Origin: Escherichia phage DCP80
Sequence record: PQ671644.1
DNA: 64,000 nt
Strand: one strand, 5' to 3'
Shown here: one piece after another, positions 3,513 through 28,722 of the stretch
How positions within the stretch are numbered: the first letter of the stretch is position 1
How the letters are laid out: each line of letters opens with the position of its first letter
Notes under the pieces: generated by a model
The model's input: the letters and a program-made list of their open reading frames with translations, nothing else
The model's database searches: none
Told to the model about the DNA's origin: nothing
Made by a program: the position numbers and the translations under genes

Positions 3513-4510
3513 ATGGCCGATATTTTAAAACCAGCATTCAGAGCAACATCCGGTCTCGATGCTGCTGGTGAGAAAGTCATTAATGTCGCGAAAGCTGATT
3601 ACTCAGTTTTATCAGACGGCGTTAACGTAGATTTCTTTATAGAAGAAAACACAGTTCAACAATATGATGCGACACGAGGATACAAAAAGAACTTTGCAGT
3701 TATTAACGATAACCGTATTTGGGTTGCTCAACGTGATATCGCGGCTCCGGCAGGAGCATTTACCCCTCAGTATTGGTTAGCAACCCGTACTGACCCGAAA
3801 TGGGAAACTGTTGCATCTCCAACTCGTCAGCTTAGCTCGGGTGAATTTATCGCGGTCGACTCAGCTGCAAGCTTTACCACATTTACATTGCCTCCGAACC
3901 CGACTGATGGTGATACCATCGTTATTAAAGATATCGGTGGCAATACCGGTTATAATGAAATCAAAGTTCAATCGAGCAATGTACCTGGTCAAGGTAACCA
4001 AAAGATTGTTCGTTTCGGTAACCAATTTACTGAAATATTAATCAGTAAGCCGTTCTCTTATAATATGCTTATTTTCTCTAACCGCTTATGGCAGTTCTGG
4101 GAAGCAGGTAACGAAGAACGCGGAATAAGAATTGAACCAAGCTCTGGCAAATATCGTGCACAGGCAGCAGACTTTATTATGCGCCATTACACGACCGCAG
4201 AGAAGATTACATTTGTTCTTCCTAAGTATGCTAACCAAGGCGATATTGTCAAATCAGTAGATATAGATGGATTAGGGCCATTATACCACCTGGATGTTGA
4301 AACGTTTGACGAGTCAAGTTCTCTGGGTAAACAAGGCCAACACAGTATGGAATTCCGTACTACTGGTGATGGTTTCTTCGTTTATAATGCCACCGAAAAA
4401 TTGTGGGTGACCTGGGACGGTGATAATAAAACTCGTTTGCGTGTAATTCGTGACAATGTAAAATTGTTACCAAACGAAAGTATCATCGTGTTCGGTAATG
4501 ATAACAACAC
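3513..4510 (+). CDS. 34: long tail fiber proximal subunit gp34, N-terminal 332 aa (truncated by N-run)
   Basis: Translation matches T4 gp34 N-terminus (DGVNVD, ENTVQQYD.TRGY, PAGAF, IFSNRLWQ, PLYH); AAGGA RBS; divergent to rnh as in T4. Confidence 0.9.
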
Positions 4511-4520
4511 NNNNNNNNNN
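4511..4520. other. N-run (scaffold junction)
   Basis: 10 n; flanking genes (34 fragment vs unrelated minus-strand gene) are not adjacent in T4. Confidence 0.95.
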
Positions 4521-4632
4521 TTAGAAACACGTACAATATCACCAGCTTCAACTTTCATAATTTTCTCTCTTGGTTAATAAGTTTATTCTCCAGCAGGGTC
4601 ATTATACTCTGACCCCAAGAGTTTGTACACAC

Positions 4633-5388
4633 TTAATTAAAAATTTCAACAACCATGGAACGTGGGACGACAGTAAATTCACCAGCATGGACAACGTTCA
4701 GGAGTTCAACACCATCTTCAATCCACTGATCTGTTACCCAACCACAAATGGAACTGTTAAATGGGCGTTTGATTTGAACTGGTTTACATAGCAAGTCAAT
4801 AGGGTCACCCAGTTCGCTAACTTCTTTCAGCAGTACAGATTCACGCGGATAAAGGATAGCTTCAAGATTGTCACCTGATTCATTAACCGCAGTAAATTCA
4901 AAGATGCTTTGGTGATTGTGGTACTTAACTGTTTTAACGGTAAATGGAGCAAATCCAAAAATACCTTTTAGTACACGCCAACCAGCATGCATTGCAACGG
5001 TCTTTCCAAACTGACTGGCATCTTCAATAAGCTGATAGGTTTTACCAACTTTGATAGGAGTTTCTTCAACTTCTTTGAAGAGTTCAATCTCAGCTTCATA
5101 AACCATAATTTTTTCTACTTCATTTGTATCAAGGCGACGTGCATGTAGAATATATGCTTTATCAAACCAGTTACTTTTTACAAAAGTTTCAACAATAAAT
5201 TCACCTTCGCCTAAAGCATCAGTCAGAGTATTATACCCAGAAACCATAGCTGCGTTTTGAATAATAGGTTCAATCAGTTGATAAGTTTTGTTAATTTCAA
5301 TAGTCATATTTTGTTTCTCAAGTTTTAATGGTTTAATTGGACGAACATACATACTTACAATATCAAAGTCAATAAATTCTGGTTTCAT
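4633..5388 (-). CDS. hypothetical protein (251 aa) with internal duplication
   Basis: Long ORF downstream of dexA in the early operon; contains repeated KTYQLIE segments; no family recognised. Confidence 0.5.
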   Translation of the reverse strand: MKPEFIDFDIVSMYVRPIKPLKLEKQNMTIEINKTYQLIEPIIQNAAMVSGYNTLTDALGEGEFIVETFVKSNWFDKAYILHARRLDTNEVEKIMVYEAEIELFKEVEETPIKVGKTYQLIEDASQFGKTVAMHAGWRVLKGIFGFAPFTVKTVKYHNHQSIFEFTAVNESGDNLEAILYPRESVLLKEVSELGDPIDLLCKPVQIKRPFNSSICGWVTDQWIEDGVELLNVVHAGEFTVVPRSMVVEIFN

Positions 5389-5645
5389 TATGCAACCTTA
5401 TTGAACATCGCCAGTTGATTAGGTTGTACAACCATAATTTCACGACGACCTTTTGCGTTTGACACGTTTAGGTAGATGCCTTTGTTCATGTCTGTTTCTT
5501 TATCATATACCGCAATTTTATTGACAGTAAAGATTTTACCACGAATATTTGCAAATGCACATTCAAACGCTTTAGTCAGACCTGCTTCAGCAGCTTGAAG
5601 AGCAGACATTTCATATTGTTGGCCAATTTCAAAAGAAGTAATCAT
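5388..5645 (-). CDS. hypothetical protein (85 aa)
   Basis: ATG at 5645 with GAGGA RBS inside the conserved leader; track ORF starts further upstream at 5693 within the promoter region. Confidence 0.5.
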   Translation of the reverse strand: MITSFEIGQQYEMSALQAAEAGLTKAFECAFANIRGKIFTVNKIAVYDKETDMNKGIYLNVSNAKGRREIMVVQPNQLAMFNKVA

Positions 5646-5676
5646 TTTGTTGTCCTCATCAGTAGTTGATGAGATG

Positions 5677-5706
5677 ATTATGTCTCTTTCCATTGACCTT
5701 GTACAC
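5677..5706 (-). promoter_or_regulatory. T4-type early promoter
   Basis: Minus strand GTGTAC-18nt-CATAAT followed by CATCAACTACTGATGAGGA. Confidence 0.5.
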
Positions 5707-5712
5707 TACTTT

Positions 5713-6396
5713 TTATCGTTTTTTCGGTAAAGATAACGGGTCTGCATCTTCTTCGGAAGGAACTTCATCCAAACCAAGGGCATAGCGCTGGGCATACTTC
5801 AACATCAAAATATCTTTCGCGCAGTCATGTACCGAATCGTGCGCCACGAATCCATCTAAAGCCCCTTTCGGTAATGGGGTTTCACACATCTTACGGACGA
5901 GTGACAAGGCTTCGATTGCCGTCCTGATATCACGCTGGTTCCAGAATACAACCGGCTCCAGGCCATAAGTGTTCAATTCACGCTCAGGAATCCCCTCATT
6001 GCGCTGTAGGTCGCGGATAAGGTCGACAAACAACGGGAAGTCAAAAGACATTCCACGGCACCACATAAGGCTTTCGTATTTGTTAATTCCATTACCGTTC
6101 AGATAGTCAATCGCCTGTTGGATACCGGTCAGAGTATCAACATCATGTGCAGAAGGAGCCAGGTTAACACGAGCTTCTGCTGATTGCTTTTTCCACCAAC
6201 CCATGGTTGTTGTGTCGAACAGACGCTTACCTTTTTGATATTCGAGACTGAACTTAATACGTTTGCCGCGATTAACCAGGGTTTCGAATGATTCCACAAT
6301 AGCAGGGTCAGATTCGAATGTAATCAGAGCCAGGTCAATAACGGCTCCCTTCGAGCCGTTTCCCAGAGTTTCAAAGTCAATAATAGCATCAATCAT
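5713..6396 (-). CDS. dexA: exonuclease A (DexA, DEDD-type)
   Basis: 227 aa (same length as T4 DexA); IIDFETLG motif near N-terminus; position immediately downstream of dda. Confidence 0.75.
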   Translation of the reverse strand: MIDAIIDFETLGNGSKGAVIDLALITFESDPAIVESFETLVNRGKRIKFSLEYQKGKRLFDTTTMGWWKKQSAEARVNLAPSAHDVDTLTGIQQAIDYLNGNGINKYESLMWCRGMSFDFPLFVDLIRDLQRNEGIPERELNTYGLEPVVFWNQRDIRTAIEALSLVRKMCETPLPKGALDGFVAHDSVHDCAKDILMLKYAQRYALGLDEVPSEEDADPLSLPKKR

Positions 6397-6628
6397 CGCA
6401 CATCTCTTTTAATTTCTGAATTTCGCCAGCAACATAGTCGGAGATAAAAATCCCTGGCTCTTCATTGTTAAAATATTCAATCGCGGCCATACGTTTCCGA
6501 ATAAGGTCCAGTTCCAGTAAAACGTAATTGCCCTGTTGGACGATAGTCGGATTATCTTCGAAAAATTCAACGGCATCTTTAATACCGTAGATGAGATTAT
6601 CTAAATCTTCTTTATGTACCTTATACAT
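6389..6628 (-). CDS. hypothetical protein (79 aa; dexA.2 position)
   Basis: Start chosen at the Met shared with the duplicate copy (52561..52800); 8-nt overlap with dda. Confidence 0.5.
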   Translation of the reverse strand: MYKVHKEDLDNLIYGIKDAVEFFEDNPTIVQQGNYVLLELDLIRKRMAAIEYFNNEEPGIFISDYVAGEIQKLKEMCDD

Positions 6629-7949
6629 AATATGCGTCGTACCTCGCTCGTGTGATTCCAACATAAGCCAACTGGCTCGCTAATGAAGCTTCGGCCATAT
6701 GGATGCATGGAGTATAGATGAATGCTTTGTCCACTGAAACGCCCTGGGCCTTGTGGATTGTACTAACCGGAAGAGCACGAACTTTCAAGAAGGTCCGGCG
6801 AGCTTTCCAGAAGTCTTTCCACTCTGGACGTTTACCAGCGGCTTTCATCTGTTTGTATGTGTCAGCAACTTTAGCCAGATATGCCTGGAATTTCGGTTGC
6901 TGGTCTTCTGGTAAAACTTTGATGCGGTCAACCTGATATTCTTCATCTTCATCAATTGACTCAACTTCCAGGTCCCAGTAATTAATCACTAACTGGTGCG
7001 ATTCACCTTTACAACGGAGAATTGTGGAAGTGTATTTGCAATCCTTGATGCGAACCAACTGACCATTATTAAAAATGGTTTCGCTGAATTTCTTGCCTTC
7101 AAATTCCAGCTCTTTCATGTGTGGCTCTTGCATAACCAGGACTTCATACGGTAAAAATGCTTTATCCGTTTCATAGAGCTTGCGACGAATAATATTGTTC
7201 AGTTTTTCAACTGATTTATTCGTGTACGCATACATCCTGTTTTCCATCAACATATCAGCATCTTTTACAATACCGAAATAGTTTACCATGAAATCCTTTA
7301 AAGCGGTTTGTGAGGTAAAACCCTGCACACCATGACCATCATACATACAGTCGCGGAACCAACCACCATTGCGAATTTCTGTCGCCACTTCAATGATAGG
7401 AGCATTGCTTCGCATGACTTCAGTCAGATGAATCTGTTTGAACTTAGGATGCGTAAAGAATGGGCTTATCTTTTGTTGTGTGCTTCCTGGGTCAACTGGC
7501 TGCAGCTGGTGCATATCACCAATCCCAAGAATAGTACACCATTCAGGAACAGAGTTAAGAATAATCTTAAACAGAGCCCCGTCATACATACTTGCTTCAT
7601 CACAAACCAGAACATTGCATTTTGACATGTCAGGCATTTCGCGCTGTTCAAAAACGTTTTGGTCTTCATATGTGGTCGGGTTAATCTTCAGAATACTATG
7701 GATTGTATTCGCCGTTTGACCAGACAATTTAGATAAAACTTTTTTCGCCTGGTGAGTTGGTGCAGCAAGTACAATTCCCATAACTCCATTACGCACTAAA
7801 TGGTCAATGACAAATTTTGTCAGAGTAGTTTTACCTGTACCAGCTGGACCATTCAGAGTGATACATTCCCCTGAACGTCGCTGAATAGCTTCAGTGATAT
7901 AATCAAAAGCTTCTTTTTGTCCTGTGTTCAAGTCTTCAAATTTAATCAT
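6621..7949 (-). CDS. dda: Dda DNA helicase (SF1)
   Basis: 442 aa; matches T4 Dda (GPAGTGKTTLTKF, LAAPTH.AKK.LSKLSG, CDE.SMYD, PFFTH, FNNGQLVRI, TPCIH, YVG.TR.RYD). Confidence 0.92.
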   Translation of the reverse strand: MIKFEDLNTGQKEAFDYITEAIQRRSGECITLNGPAGTGKTTLTKFVIDHLVRNGVMGIVLAAPTHQAKKVLSKLSGQTANTIHSILKINPTTYEDQNVFEQREMPDMSKCNVLVCDEASMYDGALFKIILNSVPEWCTILGIGDMHQLQPVDPGSTQQKISPFFTHPKFKQIHLTEVMRSNAPIIEVATEIRNGGWFRDCMYDGHGVQGFTSQTALKDFMVNYFGIVKDADMLMENRMYAYTNKSVEKLNNIIRRKLYETDKAFLPYEVLVMQEPHMKELEFEGKKFSETIFNNGQLVRIKDCKYTSTILRCKGESHQLVINYWDLEVESIDEDEEYQVDRIKVLPEDQQPKFQAYLAKVADTYKQMKAAGKRPEWKDFWKARRTFLKVRALPVSTIHKAQGVSVDKAFIYTPCIHMAEASLASQLAYVGITRARYDAYYV

Positions 7950-8245
7950 GCCAATTTTACTCGCTTAACATATAAAGTATCTAAAACTAATTTCAATTCT
8001 CGTGCGTGTTCTTCAGTAGGAAAAACAGTTTTTGTTTCCCGCTTATCAAACCACCATTTTCTGGGAATATACCGTGTTTCAATACGTCCCATGCGTAAAT
8101 AGCGGTTTGTAGTATATGAATAGTTGGCAAGTTCATACTCTGCGCCCGGTTTTGTGGTGTATAAGGTAACCTTTCCATCATACTCCAATGGGCGTTCAAA
8201 ACCATCTTTATCTTTGTGGACCAGCACATATGCGTAGTACATCAC
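7946..8245 (-). CDS. hypothetical protein (99 aa; dda.1 position)
   Basis: ORF overlapping dda start by 4 nt; 93% identical to duplicate at 50944..51243. Confidence 0.5.
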   Translation of the reverse strand: MMYYAYVLVHKDKDGFERPLEYDGKVTLYTTKPGAEYELANYSYTTNRYLRMGRIETRYIPRKWWFDKRETKTVFPTEEHARELKLVLDTLYVKRVKLA

Positions 8246-8246
8246 A

Positions 8247-8990
8247 TTAACCTCTAATCAGTTTAAAAATTGACGCGTTCAAAGGTAGACCTTTTTTCAG
8301 TTTAAGGCGGTCAATGAATGACAACTTATCTAAACGCTCCAGACCTTGAATAATTTTATCATACATATCGTAACGCGTTTCAGCGTCAGATGATTTCATT
8401 TTCAGACGCCAGTCAGGACCACCCATAACCATTTTCAGCCCGCGTTGACTAGTTCCGATGGAAGCCATTTGTCCATGGATACGAGCCTTGACTGCAATCA
8501 CAGAAGGGGTGGTATCTTTAGCGCCACTTTTATAAAGCTCTTTTAAATGTTTTTGACGCTTCTTGATTCCACGTTCGGTATCTTTAATATTTTTAACAAT
8601 TTTGCGAATTTTATAATAGTCAGCAGGAGTTACTTTAAAACTATTGGGCATCTTAGAACCGCCATTAATACGCACCGCCAAACGAGTCTGCGCACGTTTA
8701 AGTTCATCAAGAGATAAATCAGCACGTAAACCGTTGTACTTAGTTTTGACAGGGATAACATTGCCTTCAATATAACCTATATCATTGTTAAAGCGTTCAA
8801 AGGAAACTTTATCTTGAGTTGAATTTTCATCAAAACGTTCACCAGAATACGCACAGAATTCTTGTTTCAAAAGATTGGCGATATACTTACTAGACAGATT
8901 GAAATCCTTGTTACGACGTTTTGCAGACGTTTTGGTATGCTCGCGACGTTTGTAAACTTTCAATTCAAACTCTTCTTTTGACATATTCAT
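8247..8990 (-). CDS. hypothetical protein (247 aa) at the srd position
   Basis: ORF with own early promoter; conserved N-terminal block (AKRR.KDFNL, CAYSGE, ERFNNDIGYI.GNVIPV) and C-terminus shared with the diverged copy at 50196..50942. Confidence 0.55.
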   Translation of the reverse strand: MNMSKEEFELKVYKRREHTKTSAKRRNKDFNLSSKYIANLLKQEFCAYSGERFDENSTQDKVSFERFNNDIGYIEGNVIPVKTKYNGLRADLSLDELKRAQTRLAVRINGGSKMPNSFKVTPADYYKIRKIVKNIKDTERGIKKRQKHLKELYKSGAKDTTPSVIAVKARIHGQMASIGTSQRGLKMVMGGPDWRLKMKSSDAETRYDMYDKIIQGLERLDKLSFIDRLKLKKGLPLNASIFKLIRG

Positions 8991-9146: not shown

Positions 9147-9659
9147 TCAGTAAGAAAGAACGGAAAGATTCCATAATTTATAGTCTTCCCATCTATAAAT
9201 GCTCTCAATAGAGTCCACGCGTAGCGTAGTTCCCGCAGGGAACATCATCTCATCTTCATCATTTACTAATTGTAAGTTTGAAGAACGAGTTATTTCAGGA
9301 TATAGTCCGTTGAACTCTTCAGGAGGTGCCGCACAAATCATTTTAAAAATCGCTTCCTGATAATCAAATGCGAATGGTGCATCATTAATACAGAAAATAT
9401 TTTTGGTTCCATAGAAGCTAAAGGAAGCAAAGTTACGCGCAACACTGAAATCTTTGGAGAAACTCATTACACGGTCAAACTCAATCGTAGCACCAACACA
9501 TCCTACGGTTTCAAGATATGCCAAAGTTTTCTTAGAAATCCCGCGATATAACTTACCAGGCACAGCAGAAGTCAAATTCTTACGAATAATTTTGTTCAAA
9601 GTTTCCTGGATAGTGTCTGGCTTATTTTCCATGCACTGCCAGAGTGTACTCTGTTCCAA
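9147..9659 (-). CDS. ADP-ribosyltransferase-like protein (ModA/ModB-like, R-S-E class)
   Basis: 170 aa; candidate catalytic triad pattern: Arg in LYRGISKK, SFSKDFS (S-x-S), and EDE (ExE) near the C-terminus; position upstream of srd/dda as modA/modB in T4. Confidence 0.5.
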   Translation of the reverse strand: MEQSTLWQCMENKPDTIQETLNKIIRKNLTSAVPGKLYRGISKKTLAYLETVGCVGATIEFDRVMSFSKDFSVARNFASFSFYGTKNIFCINDAPFAFDYQEAIFKMICAAPPEEFNGLYPEITRSSNLQLVNDEDEMMFPAGTTLRVDSIESIYRWEDYKLWNLSVLSY

Positions 9660-9759
9660 CTCAGAGTAAATTTCATCAATTTCAATCTGGGTATTTTCGC
9701 GAAAATATTCACATTTAACTGCATTGATGTACTCTGCTAATTGGTGACTTGCGTACAGC

Positions 9760-9800
9760 NNNNNNNNNNNNNNNNNNNNNNNNNNNNNNNNNNNNNNNNN
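9760..9800. other. N-run (scaffold junction)
   Basis: 41 n. Confidence 0.95.
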
Positions 9801-9818
9801 TGGGTCAAAACAAACATA

Positions 9819-10178
9819 TTAACCTCGCTTCATGAAGGCATTAAAAATCTGGTCATCAATATCAGTAGGCGGTTCTTGAGCTTTGACCCAAGCCCCTTCC
9901 AGAATGTCATTTGCTTCAGTAGATATCATGACCCCAATTTCAGGGTTTCCGGTTATCCATACTGCACAATCGCGGACATTCTTTTTATCAAATGGATAAC
10001 CACGATTATCTTCACAAGGCCCATTCATTGTCATAAATGAACGAGCCTTTATGATAACATCATCTTTAACGATAATATAACCAATCGCCTGATTATAACG
10101 AGGCTCACGAAATTCATAGTGAGCATTACCATTATTATTGCTCACCAGTTCAAAATTCAGAAAATTATAATAACTCAT
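9819..10178 (-). CDS. hypothetical protein (119 aa)
   Basis: ORF ending ...DDQIFNAFMKRG; C-terminal 11 aa shared with the upstream neighbour. Confidence 0.5.
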   Translation of the reverse strand: MSYYNFLNFELVSNNNGNAHYEFREPRYNQAIGYIIVKDDVIIKARSFMTMNGPCEDNRGYPFDKKNVRDCAVWITGNPEIGVMISTEANDILEGAWVKAQEPPTDIDDQIFNAFMKRG

Positions 10179-10179
10179 A

Positions 10180-10620
10180 TTAATCTCGCTTCATGAAGGC
10201 ATTAAAAATTTGGTCGTCAACTGAATATACAGGGGTTTCCAGAAGTTTCAAAAGACTGTTTTTAATGTACTTACCCGGGATACCCATATTAACAATACTG
10301 TCATTCAATTCATTATCAGGGTTGATGTCTTTAAATTCAAACCCATCAAATTCAACCTTGTCAGGAATACCATCAGCGAAAAAATAAACCAATTGGTGCA
10401 TTGTATTGCGCGAAAATAATTTAGACTTGACCGCAATAAGTTCTTGCCAATGGTTTAATTCTTTGTTAAGAAGTTTATGAGCAAACGTAATTCTATTATC
10501 ACTATCAACAAGAAAATAACCCAGGTATTGAATGGGTTCGTCGCTCCAAAACATCCTGTATGCTTGTGCATTTTGATTTTTACAACGAAGTTTTTTGATA
10601 ACTAGAGTTCTGTTAATCAT
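10180..10620 (-). CDS. hypothetical protein (147 aa; 61.2 position)
   Basis: ATG at 10620 lies 1 nt after the sp stop (TAAAATG coupling); ends ...DDQIFNAFMKRD. Confidence 0.5.
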   Translation of the reverse strand: MINRTLVIKKLRCKNQNAQAYRMFWSDEPIQYLGYFLVDSDNRITFAHKLLNKELNHWQELIAVKSKLFSRNTMHQLVYFFADGIPDKVEFDGFEFKDINPDNELNDSIVNMGIPGKYIKNSLLKLLETPVYSVDDQIFNAFMKRD

Positions 10621-10621
10621 T

Positions 10622-10915
10622 TTATTCACCTGTAACCCATTGAACAATCTTGCTGTTGTCAAATGAAGCATCGCAATACAGAACATAGTTATACTGCATA
10701 ACATCACCAGAAGTCAATTGGTCAGATACTTCTTTAACCATATCAGGACGGTCACGTTTAGTAATATTCATGATGTCAGCATAAATCTGATGTTCAACAT
10801 CAGCCTGGTCAGCAGTCATGGACCACTCGCAAAGGTCTTTATCAAGTCCAGCAGTAACTGGAGCTGTGCCACATGATGCTACGGTAAGAATTGCTGCGAT
10901 TAATAACTTTTTCAT
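10622..10915 (-). CDS. sp: spackle periplasmic protein (Sp)
   Basis: 97 aa (as T4 Sp) with signal peptide MKKLLIAAILTVASC and DKDLCEWSMTADQ, DIMNI.KRDRP, VMQYNYVLYCD motifs. Confidence 0.85.
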   Translation of the reverse strand: MKKLLIAAILTVASCGTAPVTAGLDKDLCEWSMTADQADVEHQIYADIMNITKRDRPDMVKEVSDQLTSGDVMQYNYVLYCDASFDNSKIVQWVTGE

Positions 10916-10943
10916 TTCAATCTCCTCAGTAGTTGATAGGGAT

Positions 10944-10973
10944 AATATACTGCATTATCCCTATGTTGTACAC
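10944..10973 (-). promoter_or_regulatory. T4-type early promoter
   Basis: Minus strand GTGTAC-18nt-GATAAT, then CTATCAACTACTGAGGAG leader. Confidence 0.45.
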
Positions 10974-11177
10974 TTATTTTTCGTTAGAACGATAATCATA
11001 TTCAAAAACTTTATTGTCATTAACAAAGGCTTTAACCAGTGCATTATTCACTTCTGCATACTGCACTGTAATCCATTCAATCATATTTTTGTCACTGACA
11101 TCTAGCGCGGTTTCTTTGGTAAACATATTACCATTTTCAAACCAACCAATAAACACTACGTTCTCTAATTTATACAT
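10974..11177 (-). CDS. dmd: Dmd (discriminator of mRNA degradation; antitoxin of RnlA/LsoA)
   Basis: 67 aa; matches T4 Dmd (VVFMGWF.N..MFTKE, QYAEVN.ALVKAF.DD.KV). Confidence 0.8.
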   Translation of the reverse strand: MYKLENVVFIGWFENGNMFTKETALDVSDKNMIEWITVQYAEVNNALVKAFVNDNKVFEYDYRSNEK

Positions 11178-11495
11178 TTAGATTTCCTCACAAAACGCCC
11201 AGGCGGCGTGATAAACTGTTGCACCTTTAGTGTCATTTAAACAAACCACGTCAACAGGTGCAATCACACGATAAAGACGGGGTTCTCCTCCATATGAGCG
11301 AGCTGCTCTTCCTGCATAGATACGCGCCAAACCAATATCTTCAGTAAAAAACACACGCCCTAAATTTTTCTTACGCCCAACTTCTGACAGAACACCAGTT
11401 GCATCAGGAGGACAAAGCATATTTTGGATTCCAGCATTAGAGCTTGAGCCATGATAATAAACTTTGTATTCTGCCTTGCAATCAATGGTTTTCAT
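11178..11495 (-). CDS. hypothetical protein (105 aa) with H-G-S / Y / E pattern
   Basis: Stop abuts the dmd start (co-transcribed); GGAG RBS; contains VYYHGSSS, RVFFTED, RLYRV segments loosely reminiscent of H-Y-E-type NAD-binding folds (speculative). Confidence 0.5.
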   Translation of the reverse strand: MKTIDCKAEYKVYYHGSSSNAGIQNMLCPPDATGVLSEVGRKKNLGRVFFTEDIGLARIYAGRAARSYGGEPRLYRVIAPVDVVCLNDTKGATVYHAAWAFCEEI

Positions 11496-11530
11496 TTTAT
11501 TCTCCAGTAGTTGATAGGGTCATTATAACA

Positions 11531-11945: not shown

Positions 11946-12193
11946 TATTTTAATTCATTAATTAAATGAAAATCTTGTGCATTGAAAGTAATGAAAAAAT
12001 AATCATTCCCTTCAACTGAAGCATGACAGGCAACACTACACCAGCGCCTTGCTCTGTTCAAGGAGCAATCCAAAATTTTAAAAGGCTTCAGACCAACAAT
12101 GGCAGCTGTTCTTTTATTATGCTCACAAATATCAGCATACTTTTGGAGAGCTTCTTCAGATTTGAACTGGTAATGCACATTAACTAATAACAT
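11945..12193 (-). CDS. hypothetical protein (82 aa)
   Basis: ORF with GAGGA RBS and own early promoter between gene 41 and dmd. Confidence 0.5.
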   Translation of the reverse strand: MLLVNVHYQFKSEEALQKYADICEHNKRTAAIVGLKPFKILDCSLNRARRWCSVACHASVEGNDYFFITFNAQDFHLINELK

Positions 12194-12224
12194 TTTATTA
12201 TCCTCATCAGTAGTTGATGGGATA

Positions 12225-12254
12225 ATAGTACACCCTTTTTATGGTGATGTAAAC
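12225..12254 (-). promoter_or_regulatory. T4-type early promoter (GTTTAC / TACTAT)
   Basis: Minus strand GTTTAC-18nt-TACTAT then CATCAACTACTGATGAGGA leader. Confidence 0.4.
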
Positions 12255-25224: not shown

Positions 25225-25256
25225 TGGTCCTTCGGGGCCATTGAAATGAGGAAACT

Positions 25257-26285
25257 ATGTCATATATTGATAAAGAATTTGCAGTCAGAGCTTTATCGTA
25301 TCAACCACGTTATAGAGAAGTCACCGGGAGCACATTTAAAGCAAACTGCAGATGTAAAGTTTGTGGCGACTCCCAGAAAGATTCACATAAAGCCAGATTC
25401 TGGGCGTATACTAATCCGGCTGATGGCGCGGTTTACGTGAAATGTTTTAACTGTGACTACTCCACGCATATAAGCAAATACATAAAAGAGTTTGAGCCGG
25501 ATTTGCACCGGGAATATATGGTTGAGAAGTACAAGGAGAACGCCTTCGGGCGACAACGCACTGAAGTTGTCGAAACTCCGAAAGAACCAGAAAAAACTCC
25601 GGTTATCGAACAGCTTGCTTTTTGTGAAAGACTCGATACTTTACCAGAAGCACATCCGATAGTTAAGTATGTAAAAAGTCGATGTATTCCAAGCAATGTT
25701 TGGAACCGGTTATGGTTTACAAACCAATGGCCCGCATTAGTTAACTCCGTCAATCCTGGGACGTATAAGAATGAAACGAATGAACCACGCTTGGTTATTC
25801 CTATCTTCAACGGCAAAAAAGAAATCGAATCTTTCCAAGGACGAGCTCTTCGCAAAGATGCACCACAAAAATATATCACAATCAAAGCTCACCCAGAAGC
25901 TTCCAAAGTCTATGGCGTAGACAAGATTGATGAGCGTAAACGCGTATGGGTAATGGAAGGTCCAATTGATAGTTTGTTTATCCCTAACAGCATTGCGATA
26001 ACTGGTGGCACATTGTCATTGGAAGCAGTTCCTTATGCTGAAACCAGAGTATGGGTAATGGACAACGAGCCAAGACATCCGGATACGATTAAACGTATGA
26101 AGAAGCTCGTTGAAGCTGGCGAAGCTGTTATGTTCTGGGACAATGCACCATGGCATACGAAAGACATAAATGAGATGGTTAAATCAGAAGGGGCAACCCC
26201 TGAACAAATCGAATCATATATGGCCGATAACGTTGCTCAAGGATTGATGGCGAGAATGCGACTTTCGAAGTACGCAAAAGTTTAG
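25257..26285 (+). CDS. 61: DNA primase gp61
   Basis: 342 aa (as T4 gp61); zinc ribbon CxxCGDS...CxNC, LKEFEPDL.REY, EPRLVIPI, FQGRAL.KDAPQKYITI, MAKMRLSKYAK. Confidence 0.93.
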   Translation: MSYIDKEFAVRALSYQPRYREVTGSTFKANCRCKVCGDSQKDSHKARFWAYTNPADGAVYVKCFNCDYSTHISKYIKEFEPDLHREYMVEKYKENAFGRQRTEVVETPKEPEKTPVIEQLAFCERLDTLPEAHPIVKYVKSRCIPSNVWNRLWFTNQWPALVNSVNPGTYKNETNEPRLVIPIFNGKKEIESFQGRALRKDAPQKYITIKAHPEASKVYGVDKIDERKRVWVMEGPIDSLFIPNSIAITGGTLSLEAVPYAETRVWVMDNEPRHPDTIKRMKKLVEAGEAVMFWDNAPWHTKDINEMVKSEGATPEQIESYMADNVAQGLMARMRLSKYAKV

Positions 26286-26393
26286 GAAGGGATTCCGGTA
26301 AAGTAACCGATGATGGAATGAATATGTTCTATTGTGACCTGGGGTAAGTGCACCCCTTGTGTTGCAGCGATAGGCACAACCAGTAAGTTCCAC

Positions 26394-26591
26394 CTATATA
26401 AGGCCGATTAATGCTAGTGAAACATCTACAACTGATTCGAGCGCGACGACTGGCAATATAACACCATGTGCCAATGCAATAGGGGCAACAATGAAATTCC
26501 AGAGTAGAACAAAACAGAGTATCGAAAGGACCAGAATCGTTCGCTTACGACTGCCTTTGATGGCTTGAATTAGACTAGATAGTTTGAGCAT
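26394..26591 (-). CDS. small membrane protein (65 aa), convergent to gene 61
   Basis: AAGGAGG RBS; hydrophobic segments predicted; conserved in duplicate at 59152..59349. Confidence 0.45.
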   Translation of the reverse strand: MLKLSSLIQAIKGSRKRTILVLSILCFVLLWNFIVAPIALAHGVILPVVALESVVDVSLALIGLI

Positions 26592-26613
26592 ACATCCTCC
26601 TTTCTTGTATTTA

Positions 26614-26637
26614 TGCTTTAAACCAATATGATATAAT
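26614..26637 (+). promoter_or_regulatory. middle promoter (MotA box TGCTTTA + -10 TATAAT) for gene 56
   Basis: ATGCTTTA then 11 nt then TATAAT upstream of the gene 56 RBS. Confidence 0.5.
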
Positions 26638-26675
26638 TAACATACAAACAATATGAATTGATAAGGAAAAATATA

Positions 26676-27194
26676 ATGGCTCATTTTAACGAGTGTTCTC
26701 AACTGATTGCTGGTGTTGATAAAGCGCAAGATGCGTATAATGATGTCCTAAAAGGCAATGATGACCCTCTGCAGATTATGCTTGATATGCAGAAATCTTT
26801 GCAGGTTCGTCTGGCTACAGAAAAACCAGAATATAACGCACATCCAGATGAATTGGCAACCGCAGGCGATGTTGTTGCATGGCTTCGTAACCAGAAAGAT
26901 TATGTCGACGACGAATTCCGTGAACTTCTGACTTCGCTCGGTGGCATGTCTAATGGTGAGAAAGCCGCATCCAGTTGCTGGAAGCCGTGGAAAGCGCAAC
27001 ATGCTGAATATCGTAATCGTCGTATTGATGAACTGTCTCCTGAAGACCAGCTCGAAATTAAATTCGAAATGATTGATATTCTGCACTTCGTTCTGAATAT
27101 GTTTCAAGGTCTGGGTCTTTCTGCTGAAGAAATCTTTAAACTGTATTACTTGAAAAATGCCGAGAACTTTGCTCGCCAAGACCGAGGTTATTAA
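26676..27194 (+). CDS. 56: dCTP pyrophosphatase gp56 (MazG-like)
   Basis: Start at MAHFNE (AAGGA RBS); matches T4 gp56 (VDKAQ, DPLQ.MLDMQ, ETAGDVV.W.R.QKD, DDEFRELLTSLG, SPEDQLEIKFE, EEIFKLYYLKN.ENFARQDRGY). Confidence 0.92.
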   Translation: MAHFNECSQLIAGVDKAQDAYNDVLKGNDDPLQIMLDMQKSLQVRLATEKPEYNAHPDELATAGDVVAWLRNQKDYVDDEFRELLTSLGGMSNGEKAASSCWKPWKAQHAEYRNRRIDELSPEDQLEIKFEMIDILHFVLNMFQGLGLSAEEIFKLYYLKNAENFARQDRGY

Positions 27195-27475
27195 TGGCTC
27201 GTTTAAATAAACGTCAACTTAAGAAAGCTCGTAAGAAGCATATTAATGCTATAATTGAAAACGCTAATGTTGAAATCTTTGTAGAACTCTTAGCCAATCA
27301 ACTAAAAAATTTATCTAAACAAGAAATTGATATGAATACTGAAAATGCTAAAAATGTAATCGAAACTCATAATGTTTTTGCTCAAGCTACAGCCGAATAC
27401 ATTGCCAATCCTACTGCTGAAAATCTAGCTAAAATGACTGAAGCCAATAAAGCAGTCCAAGCCGCCAAATTGTAA
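27194..27475 (+). CDS. hypothetical protein (93 aa)
   Basis: ORF overlapping the gene 56 stop (ATG/TAA overlap); helical, basic N-terminus. Confidence 0.5.
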   Translation: MARLNKRQLKKARKKHINAIIENANVEIFVELLANQLKNLSKQEIDMNTENAKNVIETHNVFAQATAEYIANPTAENLAKMTEANKAVQAAKL

Positions 27476-27516
27476 GTTATAAATACACCTGTAATTAAAC
27501 AACAAAGGAGTTTATT

Positions 27517-27750
27517 ATGGGTGGTTTCGTTAATATCAAAACCTTCACGCATCCAGCTGGTGAAGGTAAAGAAGTTAAAGGCGTTGAAGTATCAGTTCCG
27601 TTTGAAATCTATTCGAACGAGCACCGTATTGCTGATGCGCACTATCAGACTTTCCCTTCGGCCGTTGCAGCATATACTACTGTAGTGACTGATGCAGCCG
27701 ATTGGCGAACTAAGAACGCGGCAATGTTTACGCCTACCCCAGTAGTTTAA
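27517..27750 (+). CDS. soc: small outer capsid protein Soc
   Basis: 77 aa; matches T4 Soc (VNIKTF, AHYQTFPS, AAY.TV); AAGGAG RBS. Confidence 0.8.
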   Translation: MGGFVNIKTFTHPAGEGKEVKGVEVSVPFEIYSNEHRIADAHYQTFPSAVAAYTTVVTDAADWRTKNAAMFTPTPVV

Positions 27751-27754
27751 TTAT

Positions 27755-27780
27755 AGGGAACCTTCGGGTTCCCTTTTTTG
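27755..27780 (+). terminator. rho-independent terminator after soc
   Basis: GGGAACC-UUCG-GGUUCCC hairpin followed by UUUUUU. Confidence 0.65.
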
Positions 27781-27827
27781 CTTTTAATAGAGATGGTATA
27801 ATTATTTCAACTACAGAGGAGAATACT

Positions 27828-28025
27828 ATGTTAAACCGTTGGATTAAACCAAATAAAACTTTAGATGAAGTTATTGCCCATGATGTGCATTTTAAGTATG
27901 GTCTGGGTGTGTTTGACGAGGTTGTCGTGCACTCGTTCATGATGCACGATGATGATTCTTTAGAATTCAATATTGAAATCCGTTATGATGATGGTCAAGT
28001 TGAATTTAAACGAGGTTTCCTATGA
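27828..28025 (+). CDS. hypothetical protein (65 aa)
   Basis: ORF with GAGGAG RBS after a -10 TATAAT and CAACTAC leader. Confidence 0.45.
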   Translation: MLNRWIKPNKTLDEVIAHDVHFKYGLGVFDEVVVHSFMMHDDDSLEFNIEIRYDDGQVEFKRGFL

Positions 28026-28381
28026 TTAGTTGGCTCAAGAATTTATTCAAGACTAAACCTGGTGAAGGGGTGGTTCCTGTTAGCCTGCCAGATGTTAAAC
28101 TAAGAGAATATGTTTACATGGGCGATGGTATGATGGAAGAAGTTCGTCGCCGCCCAGAAAAAGCCGGTAATGTCGGACCAGGCGCATTGCCATTGAATTC
28201 GAAAAAGTTAAAAGAGCATCTGGATTCAAGACGTTCTACAAGCCATGTCGATACTACACCGCATATTGATATGACTCCGATTGTGGTTACTGCGGCCGCT
28301 GTCAGTTCGTGGACTGGTGATTCGTCTTATTCCTCCTATGATTCAGGAAGCTGCGATTCATCTTCCAGCTCGTGTGATTAA
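28022..28381 (+). CDS. hypothetical protein (118 aa), Ser/Cys-rich C-terminus
   Basis: ORF overlapping upstream stop; ends in S/C-rich tail. Confidence 0.5.
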   Translation: MISWLKNLFKTKPGEGVVPVSLPDVKLREYVYMGDGMMEEVRRRPEKAGNVGPGALPLNSKKLKEHLDSRRSTSHVDTTPHIDMTPIVVTAAAVSSWTGDSSYSSYDSGSCDSSSSSCD

Positions 28382-28576
28382 ATGAGAATTACAAGTTGGC
28401 TTAAAGATTGGTTGGTTACCCCGGGGATTGATGATTCCTGGGTGGCCAGAGCCGAGGAAGAAATGCAGCGCGAAGCTGAAGAATGGGCCGCCGCAAGCGT
28501 CAAAGATATGCAGGAAAAGAAGACCGAACGAGCTGTGCTTAAACTGATGCGTGATATCTACGGAGATAAATCATGA
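28382..28576 (+). CDS. hypothetical protein (64 aa)
   Basis: ATG directly after the preceding stop; acidic/helical. Confidence 0.45.
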
Positions 28577-28722
28577 CACAAGAAGAAGCTGAACGTCAGG
28601 CAAAAGAAGCACTGGATTTGCTTTTGAAAATTGGCAGTAAAATGATGGAAGAAAATGAAAAGTACATCAAGGAAAATAAAGTTCCTGATGGTCCATTAGT
28701 TGGTAAGAGGAAAACATTATGA
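28573..28722 (+). CDS. hypothetical small protein (49 aa)
   Basis: Short ORF read from sequence ([17 protein letters not shown]...); fills the gap between neighbours with start/stop overlaps; below ORF-track cutoff. Confidence 0.3.

Follow-up and report, generated by a model that had tools for sequence, protein, structure and literature searches.

The two tandem genes downstream of sp in the DNA of Escherichia phage DCP80 end alike because each has the C-terminal tail that is constant throughout the AdfA gene group. In outline the finding is thereby explained: the tail is a real C-terminal module of AdfA-type slot genes, and at the DNA level it is a recombination junction as well. The direct repeat that encodes it is probably the constant 3′ tail of all genes in one variable slot of T-even genomes, and at the same time a crossover point. 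The analysis covered a window of 64 kb (the whole stretch of 64,000 nucleotides), in which the genes follow one another on the minus strand in the order sp, a 146-aa gene, a 119-aa gene and a 17-nt gene stub running into a run of N. Each gene of this series begins one base past the preceding stop codon (TAA-N-ATG). The features are as follows.

10622-10915, minus strand: sp (spackle), which is conserved and flanks the variable slot on its upstream side, from the open reading frame list and the SP18 annotation.
10180-10620, minus strand: 146-aa gene (147 codons counting the stop), SP18 gp036, of the phrog_8539/JS98 gp030 family; one base separates it from the sp stop, and its protein ends in SVDDQIFNAFMKRD.
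10176-10220, minus strand: repeat copy 2, comprising the last 13 codons of the 146-aa gene, its stop (10180-10182), a spacer base and the ATG of the 119-aa gene (10176-10178), with a weak Shine-Dalgarno-like GAGA.
9819-10178, minus strand: 119-aa gene, SP18 gp035, of the phrog_4122/RB32ORF033c family, a single-domain AdfA relative; ends in DIDDQIFNAFMKRG.
9815-9859, minus strand: repeat copy 1, comprising the last 13 codons of the 119-aa gene, its stop (9819-9821), a spacer base and the ATG of the next gene (9815-9817), with a Shine-Dalgarno-like GAGG (cctc on the plus strand, 9823-9826).
9801-9817, minus strand: first 17 nt of the downstream gene, SP18 gp034 (DUF7279) by comparison with SP18, cut by the N run.
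9760-9800: N run joining non-adjacent pieces, where ~5.6 kb of an SP18-type genome is skipped (56, 61, 61.1, gp033 and most of gp034).
N runs in the window start at 4511, 9760, 15031, 20286, 25005, 29506, 37900, 42024, 46131, 49973, 53697, 57105, 60515 and 63923.

Repeat search revealed a direct repeat of 45 nt, 9815-9859 against 10176-10220, with 42 of the 45 positions identical at a spacing of 361. Read on the minus strand, the repeat holds the 13 final codons of one gene, TAA, one base and the ATG of the next gene. Its 25-nt exact core occurs at two sites only within the 64-kb window, both of them repeat copies (0 expected from 100 shuffles), and the back-translated peptide pattern picks out the same two sites, with none expected in shuffles. 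The identical peptide run between the 146-aa and 119-aa proteins is 11 aa long, and BLASTP of one protein against the other confined the similarity to the final 27 residues. The original prediction of tandem genes with a common C-terminal peptide and a 3′ direct repeat was thus borne out by repeat search and BLASTP. Its “~40-bp” repeat does exist, but the positions given for it (9812-9850 and 10180-10218) lay 7 nt out of register, and alignment of both 3′ regions yielded a shared segment slightly longer rather than shorter than claimed, 45 against ~40 nt.

To the right of the 9760-9800 N run, the sequence matches that of Shigella phage SP18, a Gaprivervirus of the Tevenvirinae, at 100% identity for 1.2 kb and at 98-99% farther on. 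The window as a whole is a composite with 14 N runs, every one of which ends at a multiple of 20, and the piece left of the 9760-9800 run maps to the dda-modA region of SP18, ~5.6 kb away. Since this run skips ~5.6 kb, a ModA-type ADP-ribosyltransferase gene (phrog_832; 9147-9759, minus strand), itself cut by the N run, is only an apparent neighbour, and the gene following the 119-aa gene is cut after 17 nt. The true downstream neighbours, taken from the SP18 record, are gp034 (DUF7279), gp033, 61.1 and primase 61; the full-length SP18 gp034 protein matches Pfam DUF7279 with an E-value of 3e-20. Elsewhere in the window, pieces recur in opposite orientation at ~96% identity (e.g. 5493-8397 versus 53696-50792, and 25229-28606 versus 60514-57141), which means that at least two related T-even genomes are mixed in it. 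Just upstream of sp lies dmd (10974-11177), adjoined by a 105-aa gene (11178-11495, minus strand; phrog_2110, JS98 gp034-like, without a Pfam match) at the place where T4 has 61.4/tifA; this gene is a candidate for a further anti-toxin gene of the island.

Further comparison of T-even genomes revealed that every slot gene examined, from sp to 61.1 or DUF7279, ends in [IV]DDQIFNAFM[NK][RK][GD] and the stop codon, with the same junction. The loci scanned were those of T4, RB14, RB51, RB69, phiD1, MX01, SP18 and three Yersinia phages, together with IMG/VR and metagenome contigs. Three families bear the tail, namely AdfA/gp61.2 (208-216 aa), the 118/119-aa RB32ORF033c family and the 146-aa JS98-gp030 family. 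T4 gp61.2, which is AdfA (anti-DarT factor A), has the C-terminus VSIDDQIFNAFMNRG, followed by the TAA-T-ATG of 61.1, and the Pfam AdfA model (PF23813) takes in the tail at HMM positions 198-211, the motif of which, IDDQIFNAFMNRG, is present in the tail-bearing proteins of the window. Searches by tblastn returned 627 records for AdfA (~487 near full length, the weaker matches falling mostly on 118-aa genes), 332 phage records for the 119 family and ~85 for the 146 family; in other T-even genomes, where the original prediction had pointed, the tail thus ends three gene families across hundreds of genomes. The tandem of 146-aa and 119-aa genes is found in SP18, VR20, VR25, TH54, RZ, P479 and others, all independently sequenced, and a tandem of AdfA and 118-aa genes in RB51, phiD1, slur14 and several metagenome contigs. 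T2 has a 118-aa tail-bearing gene in this slot, annotated 61.2, and RB-phage annotations already mark RB32ORF033c as “similar to gp61.2”.

Against PHROG profiles, both window proteins gave full-length matches, the 146-aa protein to phrog_8539 (E 3.4e-91 over residues 1-146) and the 119-aa protein to phrog_4122 (E 2.1e-53 over residues 1-119). The 146-aa protein had no match in Pfam or NCBIfam, and NCBIfam holds no matching model even for T4 AdfA. Homologue search with the 119-aa protein returned close relatives only, a tail-only profile matched short fragments only, and search of representative proteins gave 6 clusters among 1.84 billion proteins, so the 119-aa family is narrow. Host mimicry by the tail was considered and rejected, as the peptide-coding pattern occurs in 0 of 185,579 bacterial and archaeal genomes. 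A “157-aa protein” of Yersinia phage fPS-65 was likewise rejected as a fourth family. It is AdfA with a premature TAA at codon 19 (locus 4036-4662), annotated as an N-terminally truncated protein, and is a natural pseudogene or truncation.

Comparison of related genomes located breaks of homology at the tail. T4 and RB14 share 97% identity as far as the sp stop and, after a break, from 6 nt ahead of the tail onwards; the stretch between holds the AdfA body in T4 and a 118 body in RB14. RB51 equals T4 plus exactly one unit of 118 body and tail, with its two tails forming a 49-nt direct repeat, and MX01 and VR26 equal SP18 minus exactly one unit of 119 body and tail, 361 bp in length. The megablast matches of five such phages without the 119-type gene start precisely at 10176. 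In RB14, moreover, the 13 nt AGAGGTTAATATG (about 1979-1994), the 3′ end of a tail, stand directly after the sp stop, and are a deletion scar of the loss of AdfA. The gene that follows the tail varies among genomes (61.1, DUF7279, gp033-like or a 118 gene), and the junction and peptide are constant. A tail that serves as crossover point would explain why the slot differs so much among otherwise collinear T-even genomes.

Within one lineage the tails also tend to look alike. In Gaprivervirus, both tails have AAG/AAA-CGA (KR), compared to AAT-AGA in the AdfA and 118 tails of Tequatrovirus and AAT/AAC-CGA in the tails of Dhakavirus and Mosigvirus. These two codons follow the phage lineage and not the gene family, which suggests that tails become homogenised within a lineage or are co-adapted to one partner; the hint is a thin one, since it involves two codons, and other sites differ between the tails of a single genome (at 3-6 sites in RB51 and in locus L042).

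The bodies in front of the tail are in part related to AdfA. Against the Pfam AdfA model, T4 gp61.2 as positive control scored 450 bits, the 119-aa window protein scored 21.7 bits, under the gathering cut-off of 27 bits and over the tail (residues 106-119) only, and the 146-aa protein gave no match. The RB14 118-aa orthologue of the 119-aa protein passes the cut-off (32.2 versus 27 bits, HMM 113-211), and residues 74-208 of T4 AdfA align with the RB14 118-aa gene at ~31% identity. With the tails removed from both, the 119-family HMM scored 20.2 bits against AdfA, compared to a maximum of 10.4 in 1000 shuffles, and matched each half of AdfA separately. Taking this alignment, the Pfam score of the RB14 orthologue and the tail-less HMM score together, the 119 body is an AdfA-type domain as judged by sequence, and the 119-aa gene a one-domain, remote relative of the two-domain AdfA. 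Neither window protein, with 119 and 146 aa, has the two-domain architecture of AdfA (~208-216 aa). Without its tail, the 146 body displayed no significant sequence similarity to AdfA or the 119 family by HMM or hhalign; the hhalign comparisons of tail-less family alignments, which are very shallow, gave non-significant probabilities of 1.5%, 9% and 0.2%.

Structural models extend this picture. Foldseek search with the AlphaFold2 model of the 119-aa protein (pLDDT 81 overall) revealed similarity to a BFVD model of the 146 family (E 8.6e-5, TMq 0.59) and to AdfA models (E 6e-5 and 3e-4), and among solved structures none closely resembled the fold. The AlphaFold2 model of the 146-aa protein, made with no alignment, is poor (pLDDT 56), and its own Foldseek search added little. 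The order of elements is alike in the two models, with four β-strands, a helix, a strand, a helix and the tail helix. The 146 body may, weakly, share the AdfA fold; its place in an “AdfA superfamily” hangs on one Foldseek hit, given the lack of tail-less sequence similarity and the poor model of pLDDT 56. Accordingly, the earlier view that the rest of the two proteins differ, as two different N-terminal domains, is not fully right, the 119 body being a remote AdfA homologue and the 146 body perhaps having the same fold.

The tail stands out against these bodies. The 119 family has three subgroups that are 44-46% identical, and the tail is its longest invariant block; just before it, indels of up to 7 residues occur in the 119 family, and the linker of RB69-type AdfA is longer still. 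In the AlphaFold2 model of the 119-aa protein, the body has a pLDDT of ~90 and residues 101-119 one of ~50, with a helix at residues 107-117. The model fits a short amphipathic helix on a flexible linker, a low pLDDT being equally compatible with a poor model. Alternatively, the tail might be an integral structural or oligomerisation element of one fold, the three families being diverged paralogues and no separate partner being involved. The homology of the 119 body to the AdfA domain without the tail would agree with this, as would the TMq of 0.51-0.59 between the 119 model and AdfA or the 146 family, the similar order of secondary structure in both models and the I-F-x-A-F-M spacing that suits an amphipathic helix. 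However, the tail helix is not confidently packed (pLDDT ~50), the linker before it varies by 0-9 residues, and the bodies have diverged past recognition with the tail invariant, which is unusual for a mere core element. We therefore regard a purely structural tail as unlikely.

For the preferred reading, that of a constant tail on variable slot genes, we propose the following arrangement. The slot sits in an early operon running from sp through the slot to 61.1/DUF7279 and primase, and each slot gene is built of a globular body that differs from gene to gene, a hydrophilic linker whose length also varies, the invariant C-terminal peptide and TAA-N-ATG, the last two tail codons probably doubling as the Shine-Dalgarno sequence (GAGG) of the next gene. 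An SP18-type slot holds two tandem genes, one of the lineage-restricted 146-aa family and one a 119-aa one-domain AdfA relative. As to function, we infer that the bodies, those of the 119-aa and 146-aa proteins included, probably evolve rapidly and act within the “anti-toxin island” (dmd, tifA, adfA) as interchangeable modules for target binding, and that the tail peptide is probably a short amphipathic helix that docks the bodies to one conserved partner, or serves self-association. At the DNA level, comparison of the genomes shows the 45-49-bp tail to be a portable block of homology. T-even recombination at this block deletes the gene between two tails and exchanges bodies between co-infecting phages, and it probably also keeps tails similar within a lineage.

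In a more specific form of docking, the tail would tether interchangeable toxin-binding bodies (AdfA, 118/119-aa and 146-aa) to one conserved component, possibly a part of the replisome, where single-stranded DNA comes under attack by DarT-type toxins; we put this idea forward as rather improbable. If it holds true, the slot would be a “plug-in” array of anti-toxin specificities with one common anchor, and phages said to lack adfA, such as T2, would carry a one-domain version.

Selection appears to act on the tail at the peptide level. Across 20 different tail sequences, variation affects six of the nine core codons (DDQIFNAFM) and is entirely synonymous: GAT/GAC twice, CAA/CAG, ATT/ATA, GCT/GCC/GCA and TTT/TTC, with AAC as an extra synonymous variant in metagenomes. 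No core replacement was seen in full-length genes, and one 41-aa fragment has DVQIF; several loci were found through a pattern that requires the peptide, which biases the count of replacements, and the few loci found through homology of sp or of the bodies gave the same result. This synonymous-only variation indicates selection on the tail peptide. Constraint at the RNA level is plausible, we infer, only for the last two codons together with stop and start, where the GAGG Shine-Dalgarno sequence and coupled reinitiation would come into play.

These observations bear on the alternative of a neutral recombination footprint, in which the peptide is functionless and the tail persists only because the downstream gene needs its ribosome-binding site and coupled start there and because exchanges of bodies always cross over at this point. 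The GAGG, the stop, the single base and the ATG all lie inside the repeat, the homology breakpoints are located at the tail, and a published T4 adfA deletion, 61.2 Δ65-196 (PMC11257639), leaves by our count exactly the last 12 residues, all of which would be expected of such a site. But Shine-Dalgarno sequence and start need ~10 nt, whereas a further 27 nt upstream encode the invariant peptide with entirely synonymous variation, and the peptide stays constant though the downstream gene differs (61.1, DUF7279, gp033-like or a 118 gene). A functionless peptide thus seems quite improbable to us. The original prediction had offered a shared C-terminal module or a recombination footprint as two possibilities. 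The module is supported by the three families, the synonymous-only core codons, the variable linker and the low-confidence, detached helix of the model; the footprint is supported too, by the homology breaks and the gain and loss of body-plus-tail units, as a second property beside the peptide module and not as an alternative to it.

A nucleic-acid element, be it a regulatory hairpin, terminator, promoter, nuclease site or antisense ORF, is very improbable. The palindromic CTTCATGAAG in the SP18 copies and a loose likeness of the T4 copy to a MotA box plus −10 element might point to one, but each of these strings is confined to one lineage, and synonymous variants of other lineages destroy both palindrome and MotA-like box. 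Regulatory RNA structure in the tail was rejected, as folding of three tail copies was no better than that of shuffles (z-scores +0.39, +1.13 and −0.15). A MotA-box-like promoter and an antisense ORF were rejected as well, because neither is conserved across lineages; on the plus strand, the antisense ORF spans 64 aa in one copy and ~15 aa in the other.

An assembly artefact or recent whole-gene duplication can practically be dismissed, and as an artefact of this window is already refuted by sequence comparison: some public records of the slot do look artefactual (the duplicated 118-aa gene of phiD1 and the 285-aa ORF of 04086), but the SP18 bodies are unrelated at the DNA level and the same gene pair occurs in many independent genomes and in metagenome contigs. 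The concern that the 9819-10178 ORF is an assembly duplicate of its neighbour is thus excluded by the differing bodies and by the same tandem pair in SP18, VR20, VR25, TH54, RZ, P479 and other phages. As for those two records, the slot of Yersinia phage phiD1 (1364-2900) holds AdfA, a 118-aa gene, a 33-aa tail-bearing fragment with ambiguous bases and a second 118-aa gene, reflecting either tail-mediated tandem amplification or an assembly artefact. Escherichia phage 04086 (3001-3858) has a 285-aa ORF in which the C-terminal part of the 146 family is reiterated threefold and joined at X residues; mis-assembly of a mixed population is the probable cause, a real amplification a possible one.

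AdfA, a counter-defence protein named only recently, has been described as lacking recognisable relatives. The tail marks two more slot families as likely AdfA relatives or functional analogues, and so as candidate inhibitors of other DarT variants or toxins. Calls of adfA presence or absence would miss the one-domain form. The invariant peptide is a separable segment that can be altered on its own, and its DNA offers a natural swap site for anti-defence genes in phage engineering. The genes themselves belong to or adjoin a known family; for a constant tail of three families with a crossover role we could not find a description. In the literature, no paper containing QIFNAF or IFNAFM and nothing specific on gp61.2 or RB32ORF033c was found.

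Compared to known systems, the tail somewhat recalls the clamp-binding C-termini of T4 gp43 and gp55, which are likewise short hydrophobic/acidic end peptides after a flexible segment in replication-linked early genes. T4 gp43 ends in KASLDFLFG and gp55 in SPSLDFLYEAND (SLDFLYEAND). The tail departs from the gp45 clamp-binding consensus SLDFL[FY], with which DDQIFNAFMNRG has only S-[LI]-D in common; the match is too weak to count as more than a lead.

Arbiol et al. 2010 are said to have described mobile regulatory cassettes (PeSL) through which modules are shuffled in T4-type genomes. Similar to these, the tail repeat is a short gene-border repeat serving as crossover point for gene gain, loss and swapping. 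However, PeSL consist of an intergenic early promoter followed by a stem-loop, whereas the tail repeat lies inside coding sequence, folds no better than shuffles and shows selection at the peptide level. PeSL-like in appearance are three more direct repeats in the region, 10901-10949, 11489-11527 and 12185-12227 (3601-3649, 4189-4227 and 4885-4927 in SP18 locus coordinates), found by self-BLAST of the SP18 locus. They are 41-47 nt long and 81-83% identical, lie where sp, the 105-aa gene and goF begin or in the regions upstream of them, and look like reiterated early promoter/RBS modules.

In T4, dmd, tifA (61.4) and adfA form an anti-TA island, the other genes of which are candidate anti-toxins, and deletions and amplifications occur at 6-10-bp homologies in the same island (PMC9391042). 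The slot described here belongs to the same operon region and likewise evolves by recombination at short homologies; that study covers 6-10-bp microhomologies and laboratory amplifications, but no conserved coding repeat among slot genes.

Among single families, the nearest to the 119-aa gene is the 118-aa RB32ORF033c or “T2 gp61.2” family of Tequatrovirus, to which it is orthologous (43-46% identity, E ~1e-20) and which often stands in tandem behind a tail-bearing AdfA (RB51, phiD1, slur14). They differ in that the upstream partner in the SP18 type is the 146-aa gene and not AdfA, and in the tail, which reads NRG in that family and KRG in the SP18 type.

AdfA itself binds and neutralises DarT1, with specificity set at residue 164 (H164), and was described as without homology to known families, T2 being described as without an adfA homologue (PMC11257639). 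Activity against DarT1 is known for AdfA only (PMC11257639). AdfA further differs in its two domain copies and 208-216 aa, compared to the 119 and 146 aa of the window genes. Nevertheless, the window genes occupy the same slot directly after sp, downstream of sp and upstream of 61.1/primase as adfA does, with the same tail and the same stop/start junction. For the 119-aa family, the alignment covers the C-terminal half of the AdfA model, and comparison without the tail extends it to both halves.
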